A DNA stretch of 48,060 nucleotides from Ruminococcus sp. (GCA_014799675.1 JAAVHM010000014.1:3836-51895); one strand, 5' to 3'. Numbered from the stretch's first letter, positions 3,701 through 43,885 are shown. The notes: generated from the sequence alone by a model not told the origin. Numbers and translations are program-made.

Positions 3701-3801
3701 ATCCTAATTCACGATAAAAGTGCAGACAAAAAATCTGCGTGAAAATCATATGCGCAAATTTTCACTTGATTTTTTGTACACTTTTTATCGTGATTTAGGA
3801 T
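3701..3801. repeat. about 100-bp palindromic element, copy B
   Basis: Arms are ATCCTAATTCACGATAAAAGTGCAGACAAAAAA and TTTTTTGTACACTTTTTATCGTGATTTAGGAT. It is offset 140 nt from copy A with the same architecture, and abuts the stop codon of the 3801-4847 gene. Confidence 0.75.
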
Positions 3802-4847
3802 TACGGGAAGTCTTCTTCCTCTTCTTCGGAAGCCCCGCCGCTGTCCGAGCCTTTATTTTTATGCCTCATTTCCGCCCAACGGATTTTAAGAGTATCCATA
3901 GCCTCGGAATAGGAAACAGACCTAAGCTGCGGGAAAGCCTTTAAAAGTCTCTCAACAGAGCTGTCCTTTATTTCCACAAGCTTTTCAAAACGCTCACGCC
4001 AGTCGCTGATCTTGAAGTCCTCCGCTTCGACAATTTTTCCGTACTCACGCTCTATCTCGTCGATTTTCTGCTTATCCCTTCTGTGGGTAAAGTATTTGTA
4101 ATATTTTTCCTTCCACTCGTAGTAATACTTCTCTTTCCATTCCTGGGTCTTTGCGTCGGCAGACTCCACTATCTTGTCGTAGCGTTCCTTTGTCTCCAGC
4201 GTTTTTTCAGCAAGGTTACCGCCGATCTTTACCGCGCTCAAAAGCATTACCTTTGAAATTTCGTCTATCTGTTTAAGACGGTTGTTAAGCTCGTTTACCG
4301 CGCAGATCGAGGAAATAAGGTCTATAACGATAAGCACCGACCACAGGCAGATAAGTCCCAGACCCATTTTTATGGGTATAAGGTCAACGACCCTTTCCAC
4401 CATTGGGTGGACTATCCTTACCACGATAACGCAGCCCAGTCCCCAAAGAATGGAAATTTCGGGGCATATGTACCCTTTGTAGTTGAATTTTTTGTTGGAA
4501 TAATCCCACCACCTTGCGCCGAACATTTTCTCCATGCCCAAGCCCACAAGCAGTTCAAATGTGGTACACAATATCATTGTAGACAAAAACAGCGGCAGAA
4601 ACGTGTGGGATATGGGACGGAAAAATATTACCACCATAAGCACGCCGAAGCCGTATATAGGGCATATCGGCATATTCAGGAAGCCGCGGTTCTGGTACTC
4701 CCCTGTTTCCAGCGTCATGTCGCAGACCTCTATGCACCAGCCGATAAACGACCAGAAAATAAACATATGAAACATCTGATAAAGACTGTATTCAAGAAAC
4801 GGTATCGTTTCCATAAAATTCCTCCAAAAATCAAATTTGTCAAGCAT
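3801..4847 (-). CDS. polytopic membrane protein (PF06541 'ABC-transporter type IV'-like N-domain) with a charged coiled-coil tail
   Basis: 348 aa. The N-terminal half has about 6 TM segments (FWSFIGWCIEV, NMPICPIYGFG). The C-terminal half is K/E-rich with an internal KEKYY-EWKEKYY repeat and an acidic end, EEEEEDFP. Confidence 0.6.
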   Translation of the reverse strand: MLDKFDFWRNFMETIPFLEYSLYQMFHMFIFWSFIGWCIEVCDMTLETGEYQNRGFLNMPICPIYGFGVLMVVIFFRPISHTFLPLFLSTMILCTTFELLVGLGMEKMFGARWWDYSNKKFNYKGYICPEISILWGLGCVIVVRIVHPMVERVVDLIPIKMGLGLICLWSVLIVIDLISSICAVNELNNRLKQIDEISKVMLLSAVKIGGNLAEKTLETKERYDKIVESADAKTQEWKEKYYYEWKEKYYKYFTHRRDKQKIDEIEREYGKIVEAEDFKISDWRERFEKLVEIKDSSVERLLKAFPQLRSVSYSEAMDTLKIRWAEMRHKNKGSDSGGASEEEEEDFP

Positions 4848-4981: not shown

Positions 4982-5108
4982 ATAAATTTCCGTTTAGAAG
5001 CTAGATGCAAGAGACTAGAGACTAGAATTGACAGGGGAAAATATTGCTGCGGAAACGTCTTCTAGCTTCTAGCCTCCTGCCTCTTGCCTCTGGTAAACGA
5101 AAATTTAT
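4982..5108. repeat. dispersed about 120-bp palindromic repeat with WAGARGC heptad arms (copy 1)
   Basis: Outer stem is ATAAATTTCCGTTTA / TAAACGAAAATTTAT. Left arm reads AGAAGCT AGATGCA AGAGACT AGAGACT; right arm reads GCTTCTA GCCTCCT GCCTCTT GCCTCTG. The core ACAGGGGAAAATATTGCTGCGGAAACGTCTTC recurs inverted at 37041-37155. Confidence 0.8.
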
Positions 5109-5117
5109 CACCTATAC

Positions 5118-6392
5118 TCATTTATTCAATGCACGCTTGCCAATATCTGTGCGGTAGTGAGCGTTCTCGAAATTAATTTTCTTTACCGCGGCGTAAGATT
5201 TGTCCAAAGCCGCCTGCAAGGTCTCCCCCGTTGCGGTAACGCCTATGACCCGTCCGCCGTTGGTGTAGAACTTTCCGTCCGAAAATTTTGTTCCCGCATG
5301 GTAAACGAAAACGCCGTCCGCCTGACCCTTGTCGTCCATGCCCTGCATTTCAAGTCCCTTGGGGTAGCTCTTGGGGTAGCCGCCGCTTGCCATTACTACG
5401 CAGGAGCAGTACTCGTTCTTCCACTTAATGTCAAGGTCTGCAAGAGTGCCGTTGTACACCGCTTCAAAAATGTCAACCAGATCGGTATCTAAAAGCGGCA
5501 GGACTACCTGCGTTTCGGGGTCGCCGAAGCGGCAGTTGTACTCTATCACCTTTACGCCCTTTGGGGTCGCCATAAGTCCGAAATAGAGACAGCCCTTGAA
5601 AGTCCTGCCCTCGGCTTTCATTGCCTTTATCGTCGGCAGGAAAATATTTTCCATGCACTCCTTTGCGGCGGCTTCGGTGTAGAAAGGGTTGGGAGCGATA
5701 GTTCCCATACCGCCCGTGTTGAGACCCTGATCGCCGTCCAGAGCGCGCTTGTGATCCATTGAGGATATCATGGGGACGACAACGTTTCCGTCCGTAAAGG
5801 AAAGCACGGAAATTTCAGGACCTGTGAGGAATTCCTCAACAACAAGCTTTGAGCCGCTTTCGCCGAAAATTTTGTCCTCCATAATGGAGTGTACCGCGTC
5901 CACGGCTTCCTGCTCGTTCTGCGCGATAATAACGCCCTTTCCGAGAGCAAGACCGTCCGCCTTTACAACAGTTGGGTAGTAATTCTGCTCCTTTATGTAA
6001 GCTATCGCCTTGTCCGCCTCGGAGAAAGTCTCGTATGCGGCGGTAGGTATTCCGTATTTTTTCATAAGGTCTTTGGAGAAAACCTTGCTGCCCTCGATAA
6101 TTGCCGCCGCCTTGTTCGGTCCGAAGGTCATTATACCCTCTGCGCCCAGAGCGTCCACCATACCAAGAACCAGCGGGTCGTCGGGAGCGACCACAACCAT
6201 GTCAACCGCAAGCTTTTTCGCAAGAGCAACAACGCCGTCTATGTCGGTCGCGCCAACGTCGAAACACTCCGCATAGCGGGAAATACCGCCGTTTCCGGGG
6301 GTGCAGTAAAGCTTTTCAACCCGCTTGCTTTCCGCAAGCTTCATGATAATGGCGTGTTCACGACCGCCGCCGCCTACTACTAAAATTTTCAT
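5118..6392 (-). CDS. purD: phosphoribosylamine--glycine ligase
   Basis: 424 aa. MKILVVGGGGREHAI N-terminus, ATP-grasp core and C-terminal GGRV motif. Confidence 0.93.
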   Translation of the reverse strand: MKILVVGGGGREHAIIMKLAESKRVEKLYCTPGNGGISRYAECFDVGATDIDGVVALAKKLAVDMVVVAPDDPLVLGMVDALGAEGIMTFGPNKAAAIIEGSKVFSKDLMKKYGIPTAAYETFSEADKAIAYIKEQNYYPTVVKADGLALGKGVIIAQNEQEAVDAVHSIMEDKIFGESGSKLVVEEFLTGPEISVLSFTDGNVVVPMISSMDHKRALDGDQGLNTGGMGTIAPNPFYTEAAAKECMENIFLPTIKAMKAEGRTFKGCLYFGLMATPKGVKVIEYNCRFGDPETQVVLPLLDTDLVDIFEAVYNGTLADLDIKWKNEYCSCVVMASGGYPKSYPKGLEMQGMDDKGQADGVFVYHAGTKFSDGKFYTNGGRVIGVTATGETLQAALDKSYAAVKKINFENAHYRTDIGKRALNK

Positions 6393-14528: not shown

Positions 14529-15851
14529 TTAATCCGCAACGATAACCCCATAGCTTTTGCAAATGTCGGACAGCTTCATTGCAACGCCCTTGCCCGAGGG
14601 GACAAGCTCCCAAACGCCGTCCACACGTTCAAAGCCGCAGGCAAGTATCGTCCTGCAATTGATATTTTTTTCAAGCTTCATTCTCATACGGACGCCGTTT
14701 TCGCAGAGGAAGCTTATTTCGCCGTCGATAAGCTTGCTGAACTGCTGCCAATGCTTGTCGCCGTAAATCGAAAACAGCAGGGTCATATGGTTCACGTCCG
14801 CGGGGATACTGCGGAAGTCGATAAACATTGCACGTTCGCCGTTTGCGCTGTCGTTCATGTAGCGGACGCTGCCGCAGGGCGACTGCATATTTCCGAAAAA
14901 TATCATGTCGTTATTTCCCCCGACCTTGCCCCTGTCATTCAGCATGAACAGGTACGCGTCAATGTCAAGCTTCATTCGCATTCCTCTGCAAAGCAGTTCT
15001 ATGCGGTACTCTCTCGGCGCAAGGGGTATCCTCCTGCCGCTGAAAATTTCCGTTTCGTCTGCCTTGGAATAGTTCAGCCTTTCGCTGCGCTTTGGGTTAC
15101 GCTCCTCCTCGGTAAGAACAACACGCTCGCTGTCGGGCGCGGGCATTGCCGACAGGCTTGCTATATCAAGCCCGTCAAGCATTTTCTGATAATTGTATGG
15201 AGCTTCCCTGTCCACCGAATAGAGCATATAATTCTGCGGGGACGGCTCGTCTGCGCCGCCCGCTTCGCCGCTTATGAAAATTTTCCTCGTTATGCCTGTC
15301 ACTGACGAGGTTATAAAAATATTTCCGTAAATAATTGAACCGCTGCGAAATTTCCCGGCGGTAACGGTTATATTGTTGTAGCCTCTTGAAAGTGTATCCT
15401 GGGAAAGCTTTACATCATAAATGCCGCAGCGTATTTCCGCCTCAACGGGAGAATATATCTCCATGGAAAAGGACTCCCTGCGTTCCGCGGGAAGCCTGCC
15501 CAGATCAAGCATTTTGGGGAAGCCCCAGTACTGCTCTTCACCCTGTATGCCAAGAACAGAACCGTTTACCTCAACCTCCGAAAAGACAGCGTTTTTGCCG
15601 CGGCAATAAACCGAGATATACTGCTGCTCGGGAATATTGTCGGAGGTAAGCTCCACCTTTAAATTGTTTACCGTAACAACCTCCGCTTCTATAACAAGCA
15701 CAGGACCCGACGAATTCCACAAAAGCGCGCCGCCGCCGTTTACCGTGCAGCTTTTGCGTATGAAAAATCTTCCCTCGAACTCTCCGCAGGGGAGGTTCAC
15801 AACGCCGCCCTTTGGATCGTCCAGAAGCTTTTGTATATCAATGCCCGACAA
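14529..15851 (-). CDS. TerD-domain fusion protein (unknown about 280-aa N-region plus C-terminal TerD-like domain)
   Basis: The C-terminal about 160 aa read LDIDAYLFMLNDRGKV...DMIFFGN...ERAMFIDFRSIP...MTLLFSIYG, a TerD/TerZ-type beta-sandwich pattern. TTG start at 15849-15851 lies 7 nt after AAGGTGG. Confidence 0.72.
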   Translation of the reverse strand: MSGIDIQKLLDDPKGGVVNLPCGEFEGRFFIRKSCTVNGGGALLWNSSGPVLVIEAEVVTVNNLKVELTSDNIPEQQYISVYCRGKNAVFSEVEVNGSVLGIQGEEQYWGFPKMLDLGRLPAERRESFSMEIYSPVEAEIRCGIYDVKLSQDTLSRGYNNITVTAGKFRSGSIIYGNIFITSSVTGITRKIFISGEAGGADEPSPQNYMLYSVDREAPYNYQKMLDGLDIASLSAMPAPDSERVVLTEEERNPKRSERLNYSKADETEIFSGRRIPLAPREYRIELLCRGMRMKLDIDAYLFMLNDRGKVGGNNDMIFFGNMQSPCGSVRYMNDSANGERAMFIDFRSIPADVNHMTLLFSIYGDKHWQQFSKLIDGEISFLCENGVRMRMKLEKNINCRTILACGFERVDGVWELVPSGKGVAMKLSDICKSYGVIVAD

Positions 15852-15870
15852 TATAACACCACCTTTTAAA

Positions 15871-15966
15871 GTTGATAGTTGACAGTGTACAGTTGATAGT
15901 TGAACTGTAAGTTTAGATTTTATACTTATCGTACCGTACTGTTAGTTTAATATTTGAACCGATAGT
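15871..15966. repeat. AYAGTKK heptad array in the gap between the ATPase-like and TerD genes
   Basis: Reads ATAGTTG ACAGTGT ACAGTTG ATAGTTG AACTGTA, then ...ACTGTTAGT...GAACCGATAGTTT. It fills nearly the whole 115-nt intergenic gap. Confidence 0.6.
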
Positions 15967-18003
15967 TTAAAACGCTATTCCCGCCGCTGTCAGCAGGGCT
16001 GCTGCCGCCGCTGTCAGGATTATTCTGAATATCAGCCATGCCTTGTAATCCGTGCCGAATCTTCCCGAAATAATTATGAAATCCGAAAGACATTTTATAC
16101 CGCACCTTTCCGCCGCCGCGGCGCAAACCGACCGCACCGAGGAAGCCGCCGAGGAAGCCGCAAATGCTGTGTCCACCTCGGTAAGGACTTTTATATCGCG
16201 GAGGATAGCCCCCGCAAAGCAGATCTTCACGCCTGTGTTTCTTGCCGCCTTGACGAGCCGCATTTTGTCACGCTCAACGGCGCACGCAACCGCCTTGATG
16301 TCCCCGAACTTTTTCGCAAGGTCAATATCGCTCATATTTTTAAGCTGTTTCGAGGTAAGAATTACTCCGCCACTCTTTTTTATTCCCGCATATTTTGCTG
16401 TAAAAACAGCGTTCTCGCGGCTGCTTCCCGTAACGAGAACTACCTTTATTCCCGATTTTGAAAGCCGTTCCACGCACTCTGCGGACTCCTCGTAATAGCT
16501 GTCCTGCAAGGCGATAAGCCCGATAAGCGTAAAGCTTCCCTCGGGGAAACGTCCGCCCTTTATTCCTTTATTTGTAAACGCTATTGCTTCCACGTCCTTG
16601 CCCGACAGGGAAATCGCGTCCGCAAGCTTCTGCAAAGCTTTCTTGTTGGTGATCTTATGCCGCTTGCCGTCCGCGCCGTGATAGTCGCCGCACCGTTCCA
16701 GAAGCTTTTCCGACTCGCCTCTTATTATTGTGACAAGCTCGCCGCCGAGGGAGACCGTTGCTCCCTGCAAGCCGTTGTCCCCCGCTTCGGACTGCTTTTT
16801 CAGCACGTCCCTGCGCTTCATGCCGTCCTTGACAAATTCAAGCATGGCGTTGTCAAAGGGGTTTCTGCCCCTAACCGTTCCGTCGGGGAGAAGCTGTGCG
16901 CTGAAAATGCTCAGGACTGCGGTTTTAAGGAGCTTTCCGAGACTGCCGCCTATTTCGCTGAAGCTGGAATATTCCTTGCCGTCGCCGTCGATAAAGCCGC
17001 TTACGGAATATTCGCCCTTTGTGAAAATGCCCGTTTTGCCCGTCAGCAGGACTGTTGTCTTTGCCGCATTTTCAAGGGCTTCGGGCTTTGAAACGGAAAC
17101 TCCCGCCTTTGCAAGCCGCTTTACCGCCTTTGCCGCAAAGGCTTCGCAAGCCAGAGCCTTTCCGCCAATGCAGGAAAACGCCAGCACCGCCGCGCCCAAA
17201 GAAAGTCCCTTTAAAAAGCCGCCGAGGACGCTCCCGCTTGTTGCGCCTATCATCAAAAAAATCACTATGACAATTGCCGCAAGCGCGCCGCCCGCGACAC
17301 CGGAAGAGTTTGCCAAATCGGAAAAATTCTGCTCGGAAATGCGTATCGGCTTGTCCTCGAGACGCTTTGCAAGCTGTGTATTGTCGCCTATCGCGGTAAT
17401 TCTTATTATTCCGCCGCCCGAACAGACCGTTGTGCCGCTGTACACGCAGTAGGGATTGTCGGGGTTTAACATTCCGTTGTCGCGGTAGCCCTCGGGGGCT
17501 GTCCCCTTTTGCATTCTGCCGATAACGCCGAACACGGACTGGTCTACCGTAACCGTGCCGTCCTCCATTATTCCGTCGGCGGGGATAACGTCCTCGGCGG
17601 AAATATATACCAGGTCGCCTACCGTCAGTTCCTCGGCGCGGAGGTCAACGGTCTTGTCCATGCCGCGAAAGACCGCATACACACCGTTTTCGGAGGAACG
17701 CGCCGCCCTGTACAGCAGATTGTTGGAACGGTGACGTATCAAGCCGTTCACCAATGCTGACAAAACCGCAGCTGCGGCGGGGATAACAATTACCTCCGCG
17801 GGGCTTTTTGGGACAGCTTCAAGCAAGCCCAGCATGAAAGTTATCGCACCTATCAATGCCGAGATCACAAAAAGCTTTGCCGTAAGGGAGGTAAAGCCCA
17901 TTATCAGGCTTTGTCCCCAAAAACGGTTATATGAACGGACGTTGCGCCCGTATTTTTGTTTTGACGCTTCTGCTTCTCTTTCTGTCAGTCCCGAAAAAGC
18001 CAT
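15967..18003 (-). CDS. P-type ATPase homolog with degenerate catalytic motifs (predicted non-pumping)
   Basis: 678 aa. The N-terminus GLTEREAEASKQKYGRN and the actuator-like GDLVYISAEDVIPADG...VDQS are P-type hallmarks. However, DKTGT is TGKTG (Gly322 at the phospho-Asp position), TGES is FGVIG, PEGL is IGGKAL, TGD is TGS and GDGxND is AGAILRD. Only one TM follows the P-domain. Confidence 0.75.
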   Translation of the reverse strand: MAFSGLTEREAEASKQKYGRNVRSYNRFWGQSLIMGFTSLTAKLFVISALIGAITFMLGLLEAVPKSPAEVIVIPAAAAVLSALVNGLIRHRSNNLLYRAARSSENGVYAVFRGMDKTVDLRAEELTVGDLVYISAEDVIPADGIMEDGTVTVDQSVFGVIGRMQKGTAPEGYRDNGMLNPDNPYCVYSGTTVCSGGGIIRITAIGDNTQLAKRLEDKPIRISEQNFSDLANSSGVAGGALAAIVIVIFLMIGATSGSVLGGFLKGLSLGAAVLAFSCIGGKALACEAFAAKAVKRLAKAGVSVSKPEALENAAKTTVLLTGKTGIFTKGEYSVSGFIDGDGKEYSSFSEIGGSLGKLLKTAVLSIFSAQLLPDGTVRGRNPFDNAMLEFVKDGMKRRDVLKKQSEAGDNGLQGATVSLGGELVTIIRGESEKLLERCGDYHGADGKRHKITNKKALQKLADAISLSGKDVEAIAFTNKGIKGGRFPEGSFTLIGLIALQDSYYEESAECVERLSKSGIKVVLVTGSSRENAVFTAKYAGIKKSGGVILTSKQLKNMSDIDLAKKFGDIKAVACAVERDKMRLVKAARNTGVKICFAGAILRDIKVLTEVDTAFAASSAASSVRSVCAAAAERCGIKCLSDFIIISGRFGTDYKAWLIFRIILTAAAAALLTAAGIAF

Positions 18004-18020
18004 AGCTGTACTCCTTTTTT

Positions 18021-18103
18021 AGAGATTAGAATTTAGAGGATAGAAATTAGAAGCAAGAATCGAACAGTGTATTTTTATCTTGCTTTATGAATCTTTCCTC
18101 TTG
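18021..18103. repeat. WAGARGC heptad hairpin in the 5' leader of the ATPase-like gene
   Basis: Reads TAGAGAT TAGAATT TAGAGGA TAGAAAT TAGAAGC AAGAATC, faced by the pyrimidine arm ATCTTGCTTTATGAATCTTTCCTCTTG. Confidence 0.6.
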
Positions 18104-18108
18104 AAAAT

Positions 18109-18171
18109 AAACTAACGGTTTCCATTAGCATACTTATAGTTTAATAAACATACTAACAGTTTACTAATAAA
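18109..18171. repeat. AYAGTKK-related array at the kinase 3' end
   Basis: Contains AAACTAACGGTTTC and ACTAACAGTTTAC. These are inverted copies of the blocks GAACCGATAGTTT and ACTGTTAGT at 15925-15966. Confidence 0.5.
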
Positions 18172-19648: not shown

Positions 19649-20926
19649 TTACTTCACGTTTACCAGTACCAGAGTTCTGTCGTCAAATGAACCGCGCTCC
19701 ACATAGTTGTCAAGCCAAAGCTTCAGCATTTCGTGGCGTTCCTTTTCGTGTACAATGTCAAATTTTTCAAGAGAAGCCCTTTTCTGAACGTCGGGTCTCT
19801 GCCAAAGTCCTTTAAGGTCGAATCTTCCCTCGGCAATGATATTTTTTGCATATTGAAGGGCGTACTTGACGTCCCCGTCGTTGACCCAAGGGTAAGCCAC
19901 AGGCTCGGGGATCTTCACCTCGTCCATAAGGGAAATGCCGTTGTCGTGTATATCCATAATTCCGTTAAGCTTCAGGTCGAGGACAAGCTTCAGAAGCTGT
20001 GGGTTGTTGGGGTAATAGTCGTCCGCAACGCCGTCCGTCATAAGCATGAGGGACGTCATTTTGCCCCTGCGTATCTTCGTCCTGCTTTTAAGGCTGTCGG
20101 GGGTACGCATCTGCTCGGAGGTGATAAATTCGGTTTCCCCCGCAAAGCTGCCGCTGTCCGCCCCGCCGAGAATTATCAGGGCATTTTCAAACTCCGCGTT
20201 TTCGTCTACGGCGGCTATCATGCCGTCTCCAAGCTGTATGGCGGCTGTAAAATATTCCCTGCCGTTTTCCGTTTCAACAGGTATTACCGCAGCCACAAGC
20301 AGGGTGCTTGAAAAGTCCTTTAATTCGGGCTTTCTGCCTATCGCCTGCTCAAATTCGGCGATGTCCTTACGCTTGTCAAAAGCCGCGTCCACGGCGGCGA
20401 AAGCCTCGGTGCAGCTGTCCCGCAAAAGTCCCGCAAGCTCCGAGCAGACCGCGGAAAATTCCGTATCGTCAAAGGGCTTGCCCAATGCTTCCCTGTAATT
20501 GGGGGTACTCCGTTCAATGGCGGCAAGCCGCGCCTTTGCGTACCTTATAACAGCGTCGCAAGCCGCCCGCGCGCCTATTCTCGAAAAGGGCTTTGAACCT
20601 GCTCCGTCCGCGGCGGCAGCGACAAGGACGCCGTTTTCAATATCGAAAGCAAAATTATCGTCGCAGTTCGTACCGTCGTGCTTGTGCTTCTTGCCCCTGA
20701 CCGCGGCGGCGATAACGTCAAAATTCCCGTCGCTTTTTGCTTCGCAGGAAAATTCGGGGTACGGCTCGGGACTGTCGGGTACCGGGTTATATTTCCACAT
20801 TGCGGCGGTATGGGCGGTAACGTCGCTGTCGGTCAAAGCTTCGGCAGCATTTTCCGAAACATTTTCAACAACAGCCTCTGCATTATTATTGTTATTATTT
20901 TCCATTTGCCTGACCGTTCCTTTCAC
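19649..20926 (-). CDS. PP2C-family protein phosphatase
   Basis: AAAADGAGSKPF, LMLMTDGVADDY and a C-terminal DDRTLVLV match PP2C metal-binding motifs. The N-terminus is poly-Asn rich. The GTG start at 20926 overlaps the radical SAM stop by 4 nt; an alternative ATG lies at 20905. Confidence 0.8.
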   Translation of the reverse strand: MKGTVRQMENNNNNNAEAVVENVSENAAEALTDSDVTAHTAAMWKYNPVPDSPEPYPEFSCEAKSDGNFDVIAAAVRGKKHKHDGTNCDDNFAFDIENGVLVAAAADGAGSKPFSRIGARAACDAVIRYAKARLAAIERSTPNYREALGKPFDDTEFSAVCSELAGLLRDSCTEAFAAVDAAFDKRKDIAEFEQAIGRKPELKDFSSTLLVAAVIPVETENGREYFTAAIQLGDGMIAAVDENAEFENALIILGGADSGSFAGETEFITSEQMRTPDSLKSRTKIRRGKMTSLMLMTDGVADDYYPNNPQLLKLVLDLKLNGIMDIHDNGISLMDEVKIPEPVAYPWVNDGDVKYALQYAKNIIAEGRFDLKGLWQRPDVQKRASLEKFDIVHEKERHEMLKLWLDNYVERGSFDDRTLVLVNVK

Positions 20927-29872: not shown

Positions 29873-30090
29873 AACAATATTCTCCTTTTCATCGGGGGAA
29901 GCAGCACTCCCATATTACAGCCTTACTTCCGTCACGCAATAATACATATTTTATTATACAGCATTTTCCCACGTAATGTCAAGGAAAAATAATTAATAAT
30001 TAATAGTTAATAATGAATAATTATTTAATGTTTTTTAATAAATAGATTAACAGGTTGAAACGGATAAATTTATATTTATATTTATATTTG

Positions 30091-30328: not shown

Positions 30329-32473
30329 ATGGAATTAAAAGTTATCGGCAAACGGCTTTTTACCGAGCGTATCGACAAAACTATCACCGAGGGCGAATAC
30401 AACGCCGACGTGATAGGCATAACCCTCGACCGCTTCCATGACGGGGCAGACCTGTCGGAATACAGCTTCCGCATTACGGCTTACTCCGAGGACGGCGAGG
30501 CAATGGCAGAGCAAGTCCTGTCAAAAGACCCTGCGGGGGAAAGCTCCATACGCCTTGTATGGAGGGTCGCTCCCGGCTTTGCGGCGGAAAGCGGCTTGCT
30601 CACCCTTACCCTTGCGGGAGTTTCCCCCGACAATTCCGCGCAGATAAAGTTCACCTCCTCCCCCGTAAGGATAAACGCTGACGGCAGGGCGGAATTTATC
30701 CCCGAAAAAACTGTTGCGGAGCAGTACCTGAACCAAGTCCAGCTTGAGGCGCAGAAAGCGTTGGACGCGGCGGAACGCGCCGAGGAAGCGGCTTCCAAGC
30801 CAATTGAGATAGCTGCCGCGACGGAGGAAAAAATCGGCGGCGTGCTGTCAGGCGGCGACGTTTCCGTTGACGAAAGCGGAAATGTCACGGTAAATTCCGT
30901 TGGCGGAAGGACGGTTGAAGCGGACGTCCCAGCAGACGCAAGGTTCACCGACACGGTGTACACCCTGCCCAAAGCCTCGGAAAACGTTCTGGGCGGCGTT
31001 ATGGTTGACGGAACAACCGTTACCGCTGACGAAAACGGCGTTATTTCGGCGGCAGGTTCGGGAGAAAAGTACGTGCTTCCCGAAGCAACGGAAAACACCC
31101 TCGGCGGCGTTATGGTTGACGGTACTACAGTTACCGTAAAAAACGGCGTTCTCTCGGCGGCAGCGGGGGAAAAATACGTCCTGCCCGCGGCTACCGCAAC
31201 GGTGCTTGGCGGCGTTAAGGTGGACGGAACGACAATTACCGCAAAGGACGGCGTTATTTCCGCAGTTGGCGGAAGCGGCGGCGGGAACGGCGGCAGCGGC
31301 TATGTTCTCCCTGCGGCGACGGACAGCTCCCTCGGCGGCGTAATTGTGGACGGCACAACTATCACAGCCAGCGAAAACGGCGTTATCTCCGTTATCGGAG
31401 GAACAGGCGGCGGAAGCGGTTACGTCCTCCCTGCCGCTGACGAAAACACGCTTGGCGGCGTTATGGTGGACGGCTCGACTATTTCCGCAAGAGCCGGAGT
31501 TATTTCCGTTGAGAATAATTCCCACAGCCACACGGTCGAAAACATCACAGGCTTGCAGGAAGCTTTGGACGGCAAGGCGGATATTTCCGCAATACCAACA
31601 TCAGTTCCCGCAAACGGCGGAAACGCCGACACGGTAGGGGGCTTTACGGTGGAGACAAACGTCCCCGCGGACGCAAAGTTCACAGATACGGTCTACACTC
31701 TGCCCGAGGCGACTTCAAGCGTTCTCGGCGGCGTTATGACGGACGGCTCTACCATTTCCGCAAACGGTGGTATAATTTCCGTTGCGGACAATTCCCACGG
31801 TCACACCATAGCCAACGTTGCGGGCTTGCAGGGCGTTCTTGACGGCAAGGCGGATATTTCCGCAATACCCACTTCTCTCCCCGCAAACGGAGGAAACGCC
31901 GCAACCGTAGGCGGCTTCACCGTGGGCGCGAACGTCCCCTCAAACGCAAAGTTCACCGACACGGTCTATACCCTGCCGAAAGCTACAGCAAGCGTTCTCG
32001 GCGGCGTAAAGGTAGACGGCACTACTATCACCGCAAACGCAAGCGGAGTAATTTCCGCATTGGCTTCGGGGGGAAGCGGCATTACTATCGACAAGATATA
32101 CGAGGACAACGTTTACTGGAGCAGTCACGCCGATTTCCGCTACATAAAGCTGCCCTACGCGTACACCTACTGGGACTACATTTTCGCCACAAATCTTTAT
32201 GTCGTCTCAACCACGCCCTGGTACGGACATTCGGGCTGTATTCTTCTGAAAACCCAGTATATCATCACCGCTTCGAGAGACCCCTCCACATACGCGGCGA
32301 CAAAAGCGCCGATACAGTATAACTTCAACGGCATGGGCAATGAAACGTCCTATCTCCAGTTTTCAAACACAACTCATATCACCGTCAGGGGAGCTGAACA
32401 GCTTGTTATCTGGGGAATAAAAATGCCTAACAAAGCAATGCTCGGTTCGCTTGCTGCCAACGCGACCGCCTGA
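30329..32473 (+). CDS. phage tail-fibre-like repeat protein (orphan)
   Basis: 714 aa with no signal peptide. Eight copies of Y-[VT]-LP-x-A-x(4)-LGGV-x-VDG-[TS]-T-[IV]-x(4,5)-GVIS, two NSH-[SG]-HT-x(4)-GLQ-x-[AV]-LDGKADIS modules, and a unique about 135-aa C-terminal domain. Confidence 0.7.
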   Translation: MELKVIGKRLFTERIDKTITEGEYNADVIGITLDRFHDGADLSEYSFRITAYSEDGEAMAEQVLSKDPAGESSIRLVWRVAPGFAAESGLLTLTLAGVSPDNSAQIKFTSSPVRINADGRAEFIPEKTVAEQYLNQVQLEAQKALDAAERAEEAASKPIEIAAATEEKIGGVLSGGDVSVDESGNVTVNSVGGRTVEADVPADARFTDTVYTLPKASENVLGGVMVDGTTVTADENGVISAAGSGEKYVLPEATENTLGGVMVDGTTVTVKNGVLSAAAGEKYVLPAATATVLGGVKVDGTTITAKDGVISAVGGSGGGNGGSGYVLPAATDSSLGGVIVDGTTITASENGVISVIGGTGGGSGYVLPAADENTLGGVMVDGSTISARAGVISVENNSHSHTVENITGLQEALDGKADISAIPTSVPANGGNADTVGGFTVETNVPADAKFTDTVYTLPEATSSVLGGVMTDGSTISANGGIISVADNSHGHTIANVAGLQGVLDGKADISAIPTSLPANGGNAATVGGFTVGANVPSNAKFTDTVYTLPKATASVLGGVKVDGTTITANASGVISALASGGSGITIDKIYEDNVYWSSHADFRYIKLPYAYTYWDYIFATNLYVVSTTPWYGHSGCILLKTQYIITASRDPSTYAATKAPIQYNFNGMGNETSYLQFSNTTHITVRGAEQLVIWGIKMPNKAMLGSLAANATA
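30821..32059 (+). repeat. in-frame tandem repeats inside the tail-fibre-like gene
   Basis: About 31-40-aa units recur at protein residues 165-577. This includes a higher-order 90-aa (270-nt) duplication at 31514-32056. Confidence 0.8.
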
Positions 32474-34131: not shown

Positions 34132-34578
34132 TTATTCTCCCTTAAGCTCGGAAATAACGTTTATAAAGCTTTCAACATCGCTGAAATCCTTATACACCGA
34201 GGCGAAGCGCACGTACGCCACCTGGTCTATCTCCTTTAAATTCTGCAAAACTATATCCCCTATCTCGCTGTAGGTTATCTGATTTTCCATGCTGTTTGCA
34301 AAGTAGCTTTCAACGCTTTCCACTATCCTGTCTATGTCCTCAACAGAAACAGGACGCTTTTTCACCGCCGTTGAAAGACCCTTTATAAGCTTGTTCCTGT
34401 CGAATATCTCAATGGAATTGTCCCTTTTCAGCACAAGCTGGACGGGCATTTCCACCGCCTCGTATGTAGTGAACCTTTTTCCGCAGCGGACGCACTCTCT
34501 GCGGCGGCGTTTTTTTCCGTCCACGGGACGGGAATCCACTACCTTTGTATCCTCAAAGCCGCAAAACGGACATTTCAT
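34132..34578 (-). CDS. nrdR: transcriptional repressor NrdR
   Basis: 148 aa. MKCPFCG...CVRCGKRFTT zinc ribbon plus an ATP-cone. GGAGGGA RBS. Confidence 0.93.
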   Translation of the reverse strand: MKCPFCGFEDTKVVDSRPVDGKKRRRRECVRCGKRFTTYEAVEMPVQLVLKRDNSIEIFDRNKLIKGLSTAVKKRPVSVEDIDRIVESVESYFANSMENQITYSEIGDIVLQNLKEIDQVAYVRFASVYKDFSDVESFINVISELKGE

Positions 34579-34591
34579 AAACAGAATCCCT

Positions 34592-34640
34592 CCAAGATGC
34601 CAGAGGCAAGATGCAAGAACAGAGATATTTTCCCTGTTCT
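34592..34640. repeat. partial WAGARGC heptad element in the nrdR 5' leader
   Basis: Reads CAAGATG CCAGAGG CAAGATG CAAGAAC AGAGATATTTTCCCTGTTC. The last part resembles the core of the 4982/37041 repeat and forms a GAACAG...CTGTTC hairpin. Confidence 0.55.
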
Positions 34641-36964: not shown

Positions 36965-37040
36965 TTATGAAAACTTTCCTTTCTTTTTCAAACGATAAGA
37001 ATATTTTAACTCTTATGACGAATATTGTCAAGATAATTTA

Positions 37041-37155
37041 GATAAATTTTCATTTACTAAAGGCAAGAGGCAAGAGACTGGAAGCCGGAAGACGTTTCCG
37101 CAGCAATATTTCCCCCTGTTAATTCCAGCCTCTAGCCTCTGCCCTCTGGCTTCTG
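37041..37155. repeat. dispersed about 120-bp palindromic repeat with WAGARGC heptad arms (copy 2, inverted relative to copy 1)
   Basis: Reads GATAAATTTTCATTTA...GGCAAGAGGCAAGAGACTGGAAGCCGGAAGACGTTTCCGCAGCAATATTTCCCCCTGTTAATTCCAGCCTCTAGCCTCTGCCCTCTGGCTTCTG. It aligns along its length to the reverse complement of 4982-5108 (identity not computed). Confidence 0.8.
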
Positions 37156-37189
37156 ATTGTGATAGGTTAATGAAACATTGAAAAATTAC

Positions 37190-37284: not shown

Positions 37285-38301
37285 ATGGCAGGTTATATTG
37301 GCACAAGATGTATGGTTTGCAGCGAAAAATTTACAGAGGAAGACGATATCGTAGTCTGCCCCGAATGCGGTACTCCATACCATAAGGAATGTTACAAAAA
37401 AGAGGAAAAATGCGTGAACACCGTCCTGCACGAAAACGGCGGCTCATGGAAGCCCTCATACGATACGGGAAGCGACAGCTCACAGACGGAAAGCGTTGTC
37501 TGCCGCTTCTGCGGGTACTCAAATCCGCCCCTTACCCTTTTTTGCCGCAAATGCGGTATGCCCGCACAGAGCTTGCAGGACATTAACGCCGAAAATATCA
37601 GGAACGAACAGCGCTATGGCGGCGTAAACATCAACAGCGACCCGGGCGCCTACAACGGCAACGCGGGAAGCGGTATGCCCTTTAATCCGTTTTTGATAAA
37701 TTTTTCCGACCCGCTTTGCGGCTTTAACCCAGACGAGGATTTCGACGGCGTCAAAATGTCCGAGCTGGGCGACTTTGTGGGGACGAACACCCATTACTAC
37801 CTACCCATATTCAAACGCTTCAAGGAAAGCGGCAGGCTGCTGACGTGGAACTTCAGCGCAATGCTTGTCCCCGAGCTGTATTTTGCCTACAGAAAAATGC
37901 CGCTTTACGCCTTTGCCGCGCTTATCATGCGGTTTGTTTCGCTTATTCCGCAGCTTATAATGTTCTGCGCTCAAATGCCGCAGTACGGCAGGCTGTACGA
38001 ATTTGCGTCAAAATTTGACTTTACGGGGACTGCTTTCAGCGGCGTTCTTATGCTCTGCTCAATAATAGTGTACGCTTTGATGTTTACATCGGGACTTATG
38101 GGCAACAAGCTTTACTACAACCATACTCTGAAAAAGATCGGGAAAATAAAGTCCTGTTCGGATTCTGCAAACGATATTTATATCCTTAACCGCAAAGGCG
38201 GCACTTCGGGGGGACTTCTTGCGCTGTTTATCTGCCTTATGGCTATACCTTATATTTTATTGCTTTTTGCGGACTTTTTAGCAATATTTGGCAAGATATA
38301 A
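37285..38301 (+). CDS. double zinc-ribbon protein with C-terminal DUF2628-like membrane domain
   Basis: CMVCSEKF...CPECGTPYHKECY (PHD/RING-like spacing) and CRFCG...CRKCG. This is followed by WNFSAMLVPELYFAYRKMPLYAF and 3-4 TM segments. Confidence 0.6.
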   Translation: MAGYIGTRCMVCSEKFTEEDDIVVCPECGTPYHKECYKKEEKCVNTVLHENGGSWKPSYDTGSDSSQTESVVCRFCGYSNPPLTLFCRKCGMPAQSLQDINAENIRNEQRYGGVNINSDPGAYNGNAGSGMPFNPFLINFSDPLCGFNPDEDFDGVKMSELGDFVGTNTHYYLPIFKRFKESGRLLTWNFSAMLVPELYFAYRKMPLYAFAALIMRFVSLIPQLIMFCAQMPQYGRLYEFASKFDFTGTAFSGVLMLCSIIVYALMFTSGLMGNKLYYNHTLKKIGKIKSCSDSANDIYILNRKGGTSGGLLALFICLMAIPYILLLFADFLAIFGKI

Positions 38302-43268: not shown

Positions 43269-43330
43269 CGAGGAAAGAATTTTTCCTAAAAAATAAAATA
43301 AAAAAACAGGAGAACAGCGGCGGGCTAAAA

Positions 43331-43368
43331 CTTCTAGCCTCCAGCCTCTTGTCTCTAGTTTCTAGAAG
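43331..43368. repeat. pyrimidine-strand heptad array between nifS and iscU
   Basis: Reads CTTCTAG CCTCCAG CCTCTTG TCTCTAG TTTCTAG AAG and runs directly into the iscU RBS. Confidence 0.6.
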
Positions 43369-43382
43369 AAGGAGTGTTTTTA

Positions 43383-43805
43383 ATGCTTTACAGCGATAAG
43401 GTAATGGATCATTTTGCAAACCCAAGAAACGTGGGTGAAATCGAGGACGCCGACGGTATCGGCGAGGTTGGCAACGCCAAGTGCGGCGACATTATGAAGA
43501 TGTACATTAAGGTGGACAACGGCGTTATTTCCGACGTTAAGTTCAAGACTTTCGGCTGCGGCGCGGCTGTGGCAACATCTTCCATAGCAACCGAAATGAT
43601 AATGGGCAAGACCATTGACGAGGCTTTGAAGCTTACCAACAAGGCTGTAGTGGAGGCTTTGGAGGGACTTCCTCCCCAGAAGCTGCACTGCTCGGTTCTT
43701 GCGGAGCAGGCTATGAAGTCGGCAATTTCCGACTACTACCAGCGTCAGGGTATCGACCCGAAACCAATTGTGGGCGAGATAGGCGAATGCGAGGCTTGCC
43801 ACTAG
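43383..43805 (+). CDS. iscU: Fe-S cluster assembly scaffold protein (NifU N-terminal/IscU type)
   Basis: Three conserved Cys in GNAKCGD, FGCGAAVA and LHCSVLA. ATG at 43383 lies 8 nt after AAGGAG. Confidence 0.9.
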   Translation: MLYSDKVMDHFANPRNVGEIEDADGIGEVGNAKCGDIMKMYIKVDNGVISDVKFKTFGCGAAVATSSIATEMIMGKTIDEALKLTNKAVVEALEGLPPQKLHCSVLAEQAMKSAISDYYQRQGIDPKPIVGEIGECEACH

Positions 43806-43847
43806 AGGATAGAGGCAAGAAGCAAGAAGCAAGAGGCAAGATATAAG
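43803..43847. repeat. purine-strand heptad array immediately after iscU
   Basis: Reads TAGAGGA TAGAGGC AAGAAGC AAGAAGC AAGAGGC AAGATAT and starts at the iscU stop codon. It is complementary in character to 43331-43368 (GCCTCTTG vs CAAGAGGC). Confidence 0.6.
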
Positions 43848-43885
43848 AAAAAACAAGTCTTTCTGACTTGTTTTTTCTTTTTGTG
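43846..43885. terminator. bidirectional intrinsic terminator (iscU / DUF4317 gene)
   Basis: AAACAAGTC-TTTCT-GACTTGTTT, flanked by an A-run upstream and TTTTTTCTTTTT downstream, between convergent genes. Confidence 0.75.

Follow-up and report, generated by a model that had tools for sequence, protein, structure and literature searches.

The spacer in front of the minus-strand gene at 15967–18003 raises the question of what a tract of phased seven-nucleotide units is, and why it should stand directly before a ribosome-binding site. The array (18020–18061, minus strand, with its purine strand on the plus strand) consists of six heptads, which the mRNA of this gene carries as a pyrimidine tract (GATTCTT GCTTCTA ATTTCTA TCCTCTA AATTCTA ATCTCTA). 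The tract stops 3 nt short of the Shine–Dalgarno (SD) sequence AAGGAG, leaving 17 nt to the ATG at 18003. A degenerate purine-rich partner arm at 18064–18103 (minus strand; CAAGAGGAAAGAUUCAUAAAGCAAGAU in mRNA sense) is predicted to pair with the first three pyrimidine heptads; folded in gene sense, 18004–18110 gives −22.5 kcal/mol (z = −2.8) with 17 pairs, three of the six heptads being paired. We analysed this locus within a 48,060-nt stretch of Ruminococcus DNA (the window; C14:3836–51895) and within the 2.24-Mb MAG to which it belongs (G000; 175 contigs, 79% complete). Proteins that cluster with its NrdR carry the names Oscillospiraceae or Ruminococcus sp.

Heptad arrays in the window and across the genome

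An earlier note on this DNA had listed six sites with such arrays. Direct reading finds phased heptads of the form N-A-G-A-R-G-M, or its complement, at all six, and both the strict period of 7 and the dispersal of the arrays are as the note described them. Two sites are copies of a composite palindromic element: copy 1 (4982–5112) lies between the minus-strand genes 3801–4847 and 5118–6392, and copy 2 (37038–37168), inverted relative to copy 1 and 89% identical to it, occupies the divergent spacer before the gene at 37285–38301. In the nrdR leader, an array at 34594–34628 (minus strand; ...CUCUGUUCUUGCAUCUUGCCUCUGGCAUCUU in mRNA sense) directly adjoins the SD GGAGGG of nrdR (34132–34578), with a core-like ACAGGGAAAATAT hairpin upstream. 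The iscU gene has arrays on both sides: a solitary pyrimidine-sense array of five heptads (43330–43364, plus strand) in the nifS–iscU spacer ends 4 nt before the SD AAGGAG of iscU (ATG 43383), and a purine-sense array (43803–43847, plus strand) follows the gene, its first heptad TAGAGGA giving the iscU stop codon (43803–43805) and an intrinsic terminator coming after it at about 43849–43880. The arrays are essentially extragenic, as had been claimed, except that some overlap a gene end and provide its stop codon, as at iscU.

Searching the window for two consecutive HAGARGC heptads (at most one mismatch) returned 20 matches against 0.33 expected, a count reached by none of 100 dinucleotide shuffles. 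Genome-wide, arrays of at least three phased NAGARGM heptads number 74 under strict and 116 under relaxed matching; the reversed, non-complemented genome, used as a control, yields 0 and 1. Intergenic DNA holds 100 of the 116 (86%; expected 18, p = 8e-64), by a test that rests on crude codon-usage gene calls with 85% coding. An assembly artefact, one of the cases that the earlier note had set against itself, is ruled out by the presence of the same arrays in independent ENA, Logan and NCBI assemblies from other samples. A two-heptad match at 20686–20699 (CAGGGGCAAGAAGC) lies within a coding region and looks like a chance hit outside the family. An Rfam gathering scan of the window returned one tRNA and no other curated covariance-model match. 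Also in the window is a 714-aa ORF (30329–32473) with tandem DNA repeats of 273 nt (×2.2) and 105 nt (×2.7), which looks like a tail-fibre-like repeat protein and has no phage genes nearby.

An unbiased Tandem Repeats Finder scan of the genome found 185 arrays of period 7 with at least three copies, beside 22 of period 6, 20 of period 9 and no more than 9 at periods 8 and 10, with no other period exceeding 22; an order-2 Markov simulated genome contained five of period 7. These counts are a better measure than autocorrelation of the whole intergenic DNA, the scan originally proposed, which does give a bump at lag 7 but a small one, because arrays make up only ~1.7% of that DNA. Three heptad families dominate: F1 (NAGARGM), F2 (TGACAGT/CAGTTGA) and F3 (TAATTAA). 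The WAGARGC arrays are therefore one of at least three period-7 families of this genome, which holds ~250 arrays when both detectors are merged. The other two families are present in the window as well, F2 at 1426–1515 (TGACAGT / TTTACAG units in facing arms, from sequence and repeat scan) and at 15870–15903 (AGTTGAC ×4.9, 18 nt upstream of the start of the minus-strand gene 14529–15851), and F3 at 29988–30023 (AATAATT/TAATTAA ×5.1, from the repeat scan).

Array size is strikingly uniform. Of the 185 period-7 arrays, 95 have five units and 51 have four, whereas only 5 exceed six; with copy number so narrowly peaked at 4–5, the module is about 28–35 nt. The five-unit mode suggests the defined footprint of some machine, which counts against the selfish or neutral reading discussed below; a primase trinucleotide and an IS5 target (CTAG/TNA) are putative footprints that were considered. 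The units themselves are degenerate, heptads inside one array differing at 3–4 positions. An F2 variant of 32 nt, defined by the order of its variant heptads (AACTGTCAACTGTACACTGTCAACTGTCAACT), recurs exactly at 10 loci, and F3 includes a cluster of 35 arrays with exact 28-mers in common. F1 arrays are nearly all unique combinations of unit variants: a shared 28-mer occurs only among the three copies of the composite element, and comparison of 28-mers found no dispersed identical copies of solitary F1 arrays. Simple copy-and-paste mobility accordingly fits F1 less well than F2 and F3.

Polarity from stop codon to Shine–Dalgarno sequence

Within co-directional spacers, 54 F1 arrays are pyrimidine-sense and 17 purine-sense in the mRNA. 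The pyrimidine-sense arrays end 12–24 nt upstream of the start codon and, when aligned on the ATG, run into the SD (for example ...ATCTCTA-aaaaa-GGAG and ...GCTTCTA-at-AGGAGG). The gap between last heptad and SD core is 0–4 nt in 17 of 30 cases, and larger gaps are mostly occupied by degenerate heptads. Purine-sense arrays start at the stop codon itself (distance −3), as in iscU (...CAC-TAG-AGGATAGAGGC). Each family has its own stop, TAG in F1, TGA in F2 and TAA in F3, and the arm that bears it is no more than 5 nt away from the upstream stop in 7/15 (F1), 27/42 (F2) and 14/27 (F3) cases, against 2/29, 0/20 and 0/21 for the reverse arm. In all three families, the arm of opposite orientation is found 6–30 nt before start codons. 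One polarity rule therefore serves F1, F2 and F3: the stop-bearing arm sits at the upstream stop and the complementary arm ends at the next SD. As 7 equals 1 mod 3, three stop-bearing heptads give a stop in every frame. A full element, being purine arm, loop and pyrimidine arm on either strand, spans the stop-to-SD gap.

The genes behind SD-abutting arrays include those for SpoIVA, RecG, topoisomerase I (TopA), IF3, GlmS, PolA, S16, ArgC, a response regulator and an FtsE-like ABC ATPase; NrdR, IscU, ComEC and others are added by sequence hallmarks. This is an unrelated housekeeping mix and not a regulon.

The arrays had been described as usually coming in facing purine and pyrimidine arms able to form hairpins. 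Some do, but for F1 these are a subset and not the rule. At the DNA level, a clear facing arm lies within 250 nt of 33/55 F3 arrays, 10/53 F2 arrays and 5/44 of the F1 arrays detected by Tandem Repeats Finder; with G–U pairs allowed, about a third of the 30 SD-abutting F1 arrays pair extensively (at least 17 pairs) with a degenerate upstream purine arm. Predicted folds range from strong in composite copy 1 (4982–5112; −54.4 kcal/mol, z = −7.7) to marginal in copy 2 (37038–37168; z = −1.9), and the array upstream of iscU (43300–43385) folds no better than shuffles (z = −0.9). For the nrdR leader, a pairing of array with SD (CCUCU:GGAGG) is predicted (z = −3.2). Per nucleotide, F1 spacers show no excess of structure over array-free ones of comparable length (−0.224 versus −0.229 kcal/mol/nt), and the gain in stability of sense over antisense strand, −3.9 kcal/mol in F1 spacers, equals the background of −4.0. 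As folding equals background, these spacers give no sign of selection for RNA structure. Four distinct sequences of the composite element were compared, revealing one compensatory pair, several broken pairs and hardly any covariation.

Dispersal and turnover between strains

The composite element is 125 nt long and is built from a TIR (ATAAATTTCCGTTTA), a purine arm, a 27-nt core (GACAGGGGAAAATATTGCTGCGGAAAC), a pyrimidine arm and a second TIR; in copy 1 of the window, the purine heptads occupy 4995–5030 and the pyrimidine heptads 5058–5092. Three identical copies lie on contigs C14, C62 and C158 with unrelated flanks, and two further copies in a public metagenome have different arm heptads. 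Only this subfamily combines TIRs with near-identical dispersed copies in the manner of MITEs. Its copies show no clear target-site duplication. The C62 copy (G000 C62:10640–10830) lacks the right TIR and is alone in being flanked by a 14-nt direct repeat (TACGCATTGATTTT); this repeat takes in the tail of the upstream terminator and could be a target duplication or a recombination scar.

Domain searches among candidate mobilizing families returned neither an autonomous partner nor an array-correlated transposase. Y1_Tnp/RAYT (PF01797) is absent from G000 (79% complete) and from two further array-bearing genomes of the class (G048 and G294), TnpB-type domains are likewise absent (the MAG being 79% complete), and DDE_Tnp_1 does not track the array-bearing genomes when these are compared with array-free ones. 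HutP (PF09021) is also absent from the genome, and in the array-bearing and array-free genomes searched none of these families goes together with the arrays.

Contigs of close strains, recovered by exact-protein look-ups with IscU, NrdR and S16, show the same sites in different states. In six strain contigs with identical IscU, the nifS–iscU spacer is empty and 30 nt long (TGA-agataagattttataaaaGGAG...ATG). The window type carries the solitary five-heptad pyrimidine array plus 60 nt of other sequence, and strain contig L158 has a different, complete F1 hairpin (TAGAGAA-type arms), whose first TAG now ends nifS. In L161, the 3′ purine array of iscU goes with an empty 5′ spacer; the two arrays flanking iscU are thus independent events. 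The same contig rules out a single composite transposon around iscU. Relatives without the 3′ array end iscU in TAA or TGA. The 3′ side of iscU (window 43806 onward; L156–L165) is also a synteny breakpoint, with at least four downstream contexts for an identical IscU.

The nrdR leader exists in three states behind the same TTGACA-17-TATAAT promoter and in front of an identical NrdR protein: the array seen in the window, an F1 hairpin unrelated to it (L167) and an empty site (L169). For the rpsP leader we count four states or more; three are different F1 insertions, each filling the whole stretch from just past the −10 region to the SD. Strains that have an insertion in common differ at three loci by base substitutions and not by unit number, so slippage is not the visible mode of variation. 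The proposed comparison of repeat number among strains, once run, returned presence, absence or replacement of whole arrays and no change in unit number; the arrays are young and turn over quickly. At the empty sites (nifS–iscU in L159 and L161–L165; rpsP leader in L177) there is one F1-like heptad or mini-palindrome (GAAGATAGAATTTTA; CAGAATTATAATTC), which could be a seed for an incoming array or the remnant of a lost one. Between rpsP (S16) and khpA, a KH-domain gene, all strains have a spacer of 190–300 nt (L176–L185, about 844–1110; G000 C93) with conserved hairpins (gccaatgttcggggcggacagggttcgtccccg...) and, immediately in front of khpA, a terminator-like end; it may be a conserved leader, an attenuator or a small RNA.

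Beyond the strain level the distribution is patchy. The search of related species suggested earlier found the strict pattern 20 times in this genome and 0–1 times in each of 24 same-genus genomes. The same-genus genome G001 has no genuine period-7 array in 200 kb, where ~16 would be expected at the density seen here, and orthologous iscU flanks in relatives are free of arrays. Among 400 sampled genomes of the class, many F1 arrays occur in only a few scattered genomes, with 21 matches in G337 and 6–7 in G048 and G294. In G337 the arrays belong to a BIME-like mosaic that also includes several small hairpin modules; at L003:3300–3960, tandem ~97-nt units each comprise a 35-nt AGARGC array and a 62-nt conserved module (..GTCATCCTGAGGC..CGAAGGATC..).

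Four consecutive AGARGC units occur at a minimum of 120 loci in very diverse phyla, with hosts among Acidobacteriota, Anaerolineae, Verrucomicrobiota, Planctomycetota, Bacteroidota, cyanobacteria, Vibrio, Xanthomonas, Streptomyces, Paenibacillus and rabbit-gut Clostridia. These arrays are often longer and perfect, and sometimes adjoin arrays of other heptads. Of the ORFs in this cross-phylum set that end at the purine-sense edge, 10 of 19 take their stop from the TAG of the first heptad. In Aggregatibacter actinomycetemcomitans (L042:4325–4351), four CAGAAGC units directly follow the ATG of an ORF whose N-terminus, to judge from its sequence, looks like a type I restriction–modification methylase; the unit would there be put to a different use, as a classic phase-variable heptanucleotide tract.

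Known repeat classes and competing explanations

To our knowledge, bacterial heptamer repeats have been known since 1990, and we know of no explanation for their 7-nt unit, their spread or their function. Cyanobacterial STRR heptamers were reportedly described by Mazel et al. in that year. The earlier note, in stating that it knew of no described function for such arrays, had missed that the class itself is already in the literature, as TAACTGA repeats (PMC4679880) and as heptanucleotide LSSRs. MacGregor (2015) counted 169 sets of 2–6 TAACTGA direct repeats in one genome of the marine Beggiatoaceae, mostly a few nucleotides upstream of start codons, with no functional pattern downstream and a patchy phylogenetic distribution that includes some cyanobacteria and Bacteroidetes (PMC4679880). 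Mrazek (2007), as cited there, found heptanucleotides to be the most abundant long SSR class in most genomes and proposed polymerase slippage, with possibly ~7 nt contacting the polymerase. An excess of heptameric repeats, including the G-rich heptamers of Xanthomonas and Nostoc, was reported by Rehm et al. (PMC4692102).

The arrays described here belong to this intergenic heptanucleotide-repeat class, as a fast-changing Firmicute version: 7-nt head-to-tail units occur far above chance, mostly between genes and in many dispersed sets, with one orientation immediately upstream of start codons and close relatives that have none. Likeness to the TAACTGA repeats extends to 2–6 tandem heptamers per set, more than 100 sets per genome, a mostly intergenic position in one orientation a few nucleotides from start codons, the lack of a functional pattern downstream and the patchy distribution. 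There are also differences. TAACTGA is one unit family, whereas here there are three, with degenerate units; TAACTGA repeats overlap the expected ribosome-binding site, and canonical sites are rare in those regions, whereas here a canonical SD is kept after the array. The present host is a gut Firmicute (Oscillospiraceae), in which many arrays are arms of hairpins or of TIR-bearing elements and the upstream stop codon serves as anchor for the complementary arm. From the heptamer class as described, the present case differs in its three degenerate families, the retained canonical SD, the stop-codon anchoring, the frequent palindromic or TIR organization and the Firmicute host.

STRRs, LSSRs and G-rich heptamers likewise have a 7-nt unit, several unit sequences per genome, an intergenic and lineage-specific distribution and a preference for period 7; AGARGC-type units are also found in Calothrix, Moorena, Trichodesmium and Xanthomonas. 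Those arrays are often long and near-perfect, unlike the ones here, which have ~5 degenerate units, are polar with respect to stop and SD and often form inverted pairs. REP/BIME/REPIN sequences and MITEs (Correia, ERIC) resemble them as extragenic, species-specific, hairpin-forming, non-coding dispersed repeats with several families per genome and inverted doublets around a 20–90-nt spacer, and one subfamily here is MITE-like in its TIRs and identical copies. The REP/REPIN unit, however, is itself a short imperfect palindrome; the single arms here are tandem direct repeats of heptads, complementary only between arm pairs, most F1 arrays are solitary, and we found no RAYT, autonomous partner or clear target duplication.

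Proteins that read nucleic-acid repeats in a 7-nt or 7-bp register offer a further comparison, among them TRAP with its periodic RNA sites. HutP reads XAG-N4 ×3 repeats (PMC2425495), and the ribbon-helix-helix protein omega/ParB of pSM19035 reads 7–10 contiguous 7-bp heptads (PMC9499535, PMC2441792). On their purine strands, F1 and F2 consist of NAG-N4 repeats in the manner of HutP sites, yet the HutP gene is absent and most arrays are transcribed in the opposite sense, as pyrimidine tracts. The omega operator has the consensus WATCACW, from which the F1 unit differs, the contiguous 7-bp architecture alone being in common. At ~250 sites that are not conserved, the arrays also depart from the sites of all three proteins.

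The best reading is that F1 is one family of a lineage-specific, fast-turnover intergenic repeat class, with the Beggiatoaceae TAACTGA repeats and cyanobacterial STRRs as its closest known relatives. As to their nature, we put at about an even chance that the arrays are selfish or neutral repeats with fast turnover, tolerated only in the stop-to-SD gap, where their effects on the mRNA would be secondary. The modules, about five heptads (~35 nt) in size, would arise and spread by a mutational or mobile process; as their vehicle we picture small non-autonomous palindromic elements of which they form the arms, purine and pyrimidine on either side of a loop, perhaps with ectopic copying as an added route. 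Selection would retain them only where they are harmless, between the upstream stop codon and the next SD or promoter −10 box, and the first TAG-, TGA- or TAA-containing heptad could itself supply the stop. The SD-like purine strand would mostly be kept away from the position just 5′ of the real SD, leaving the anti-SD-like pyrimidine strand there. In the transcript, a module might fold into a stem-loop joining the stop codon to the SD, or place a CU-rich tract next to the SD, so that effects on mRNA stability or translation would be secondary and locus-specific and not conserved regulation.

Repeated independent gains at the same narrow position, together with the tight abutment to the SD, could nevertheless reflect targeting or a selected function, and a role in translation or mRNA stability is the main rival reading, although we think it rather doubtful. 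The arrays would then be cis-acting post-transcriptional elements, a tract or hairpin 5′ of the SD that tunes translation or protects the mRNA and has spread because it is useful, possibly through CCUCU anti-SD pairing, as a standby or enhancer tract, or as a 5′-terminal or intercistronic stabilizer stem; a multimeric RNA-binding protein with a 7-nt register could be its reader. The strong orientation bias and uniform size of ~five units agree with this, as do the recurrent gains at the rpsP and nrdR leaders, the pairing predicted for nrdR and a subset of other leaders, and the stretch that the rpsP element fills, beginning just past the −10 box and reaching as far as the SD, which is where a 5′ stabilizer would lie; the same idea was put forward for TAACTGA repeats (PMC4679880). 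Yet the sites are not conserved even among strains with identical proteins, the genes are functionally unrelated, folding and sense–antisense bias stay at background, the composite element hardly covaries in the four sequences compared, and three unrelated unit sequences have one common architecture. The earlier suggestion of a target for a repeat-reading RNA-binding protein or RNase may still apply but finds no positive support: the sites are not conserved between close relatives, HutP is absent and most arrays are pyrimidine-sense. It is improbable that the arrays act instead at the DNA level, as contiguous 7-bp repeats that polymerize a small DNA-binding protein in the way of omega/ParB and could serve as roadblocks, nucleoid anchors or subterminal sites of a recombinase that moves the elements. 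The strict contiguous register, the direct and inverted arrangement, the similar unit number and the Firmicute-plasmid precedent of heptad reading all suit such binding, and several families could match several cognate proteins; against it, the units do not match the omega consensus, the ~250 chromosomal arrays are placed by translation signals (stop codons and SDs) and not by promoters, and nothing ties a ribbon-helix-helix protein to them.

Slippage, which the earlier note had raised as a source of variation, underlies the reading we find very improbable, namely that the arrays are simple-sequence contingency loci whose expansion and contraction switch or tune neighbouring genes. In its favour, heptanucleotides outnumber the other classes of long SSR in many bacteria (Mrazek's account as cited above), other phyla have long, perfect arrays of these units, and the Aggregatibacter tract stands just after an ATG; but here units are degenerate where SSR units are near-identical, copy number is tightly peaked, strains with a common insertion keep the same unit number at all three loci, and the neighbouring genes are housekeeping genes. 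We also entertain, as a rather improbable extension, that ~35-nt heptad modules are a cross-phylum intergenic 'punctuation' written by a putative conserved or horizontally moving machine; in this genome the three families would be keyed to TAG, TGA and TAA, and paired SD-like and anti-SD-like arms would physically join a stop to the next ribosome-binding site. The machine could be a polymerase that is templated or prone to slippage, a recombinase, or a multimeric reader whose register is 7 nt.

As selfish or neutral repeats or otherwise, the arrays make this genome an unusually tractable heptamer case, with three families, one stop-to-SD polarity rule and fixed modules of ~five units. Near-identical strains are numerous in public metagenomes (the S16 protein alone occurs in 238 blocks of the sequence collection), and at a given locus their sites may be empty, filled or filled differently, so that rates, junctions and effects on expression are directly measurable and a driver can be sought by phylogenetic profiling. 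For annotation, the arrays mark the edges of functional sequence (stop codon, −10 box and SD) and are not to be taken for regulatory RNAs.
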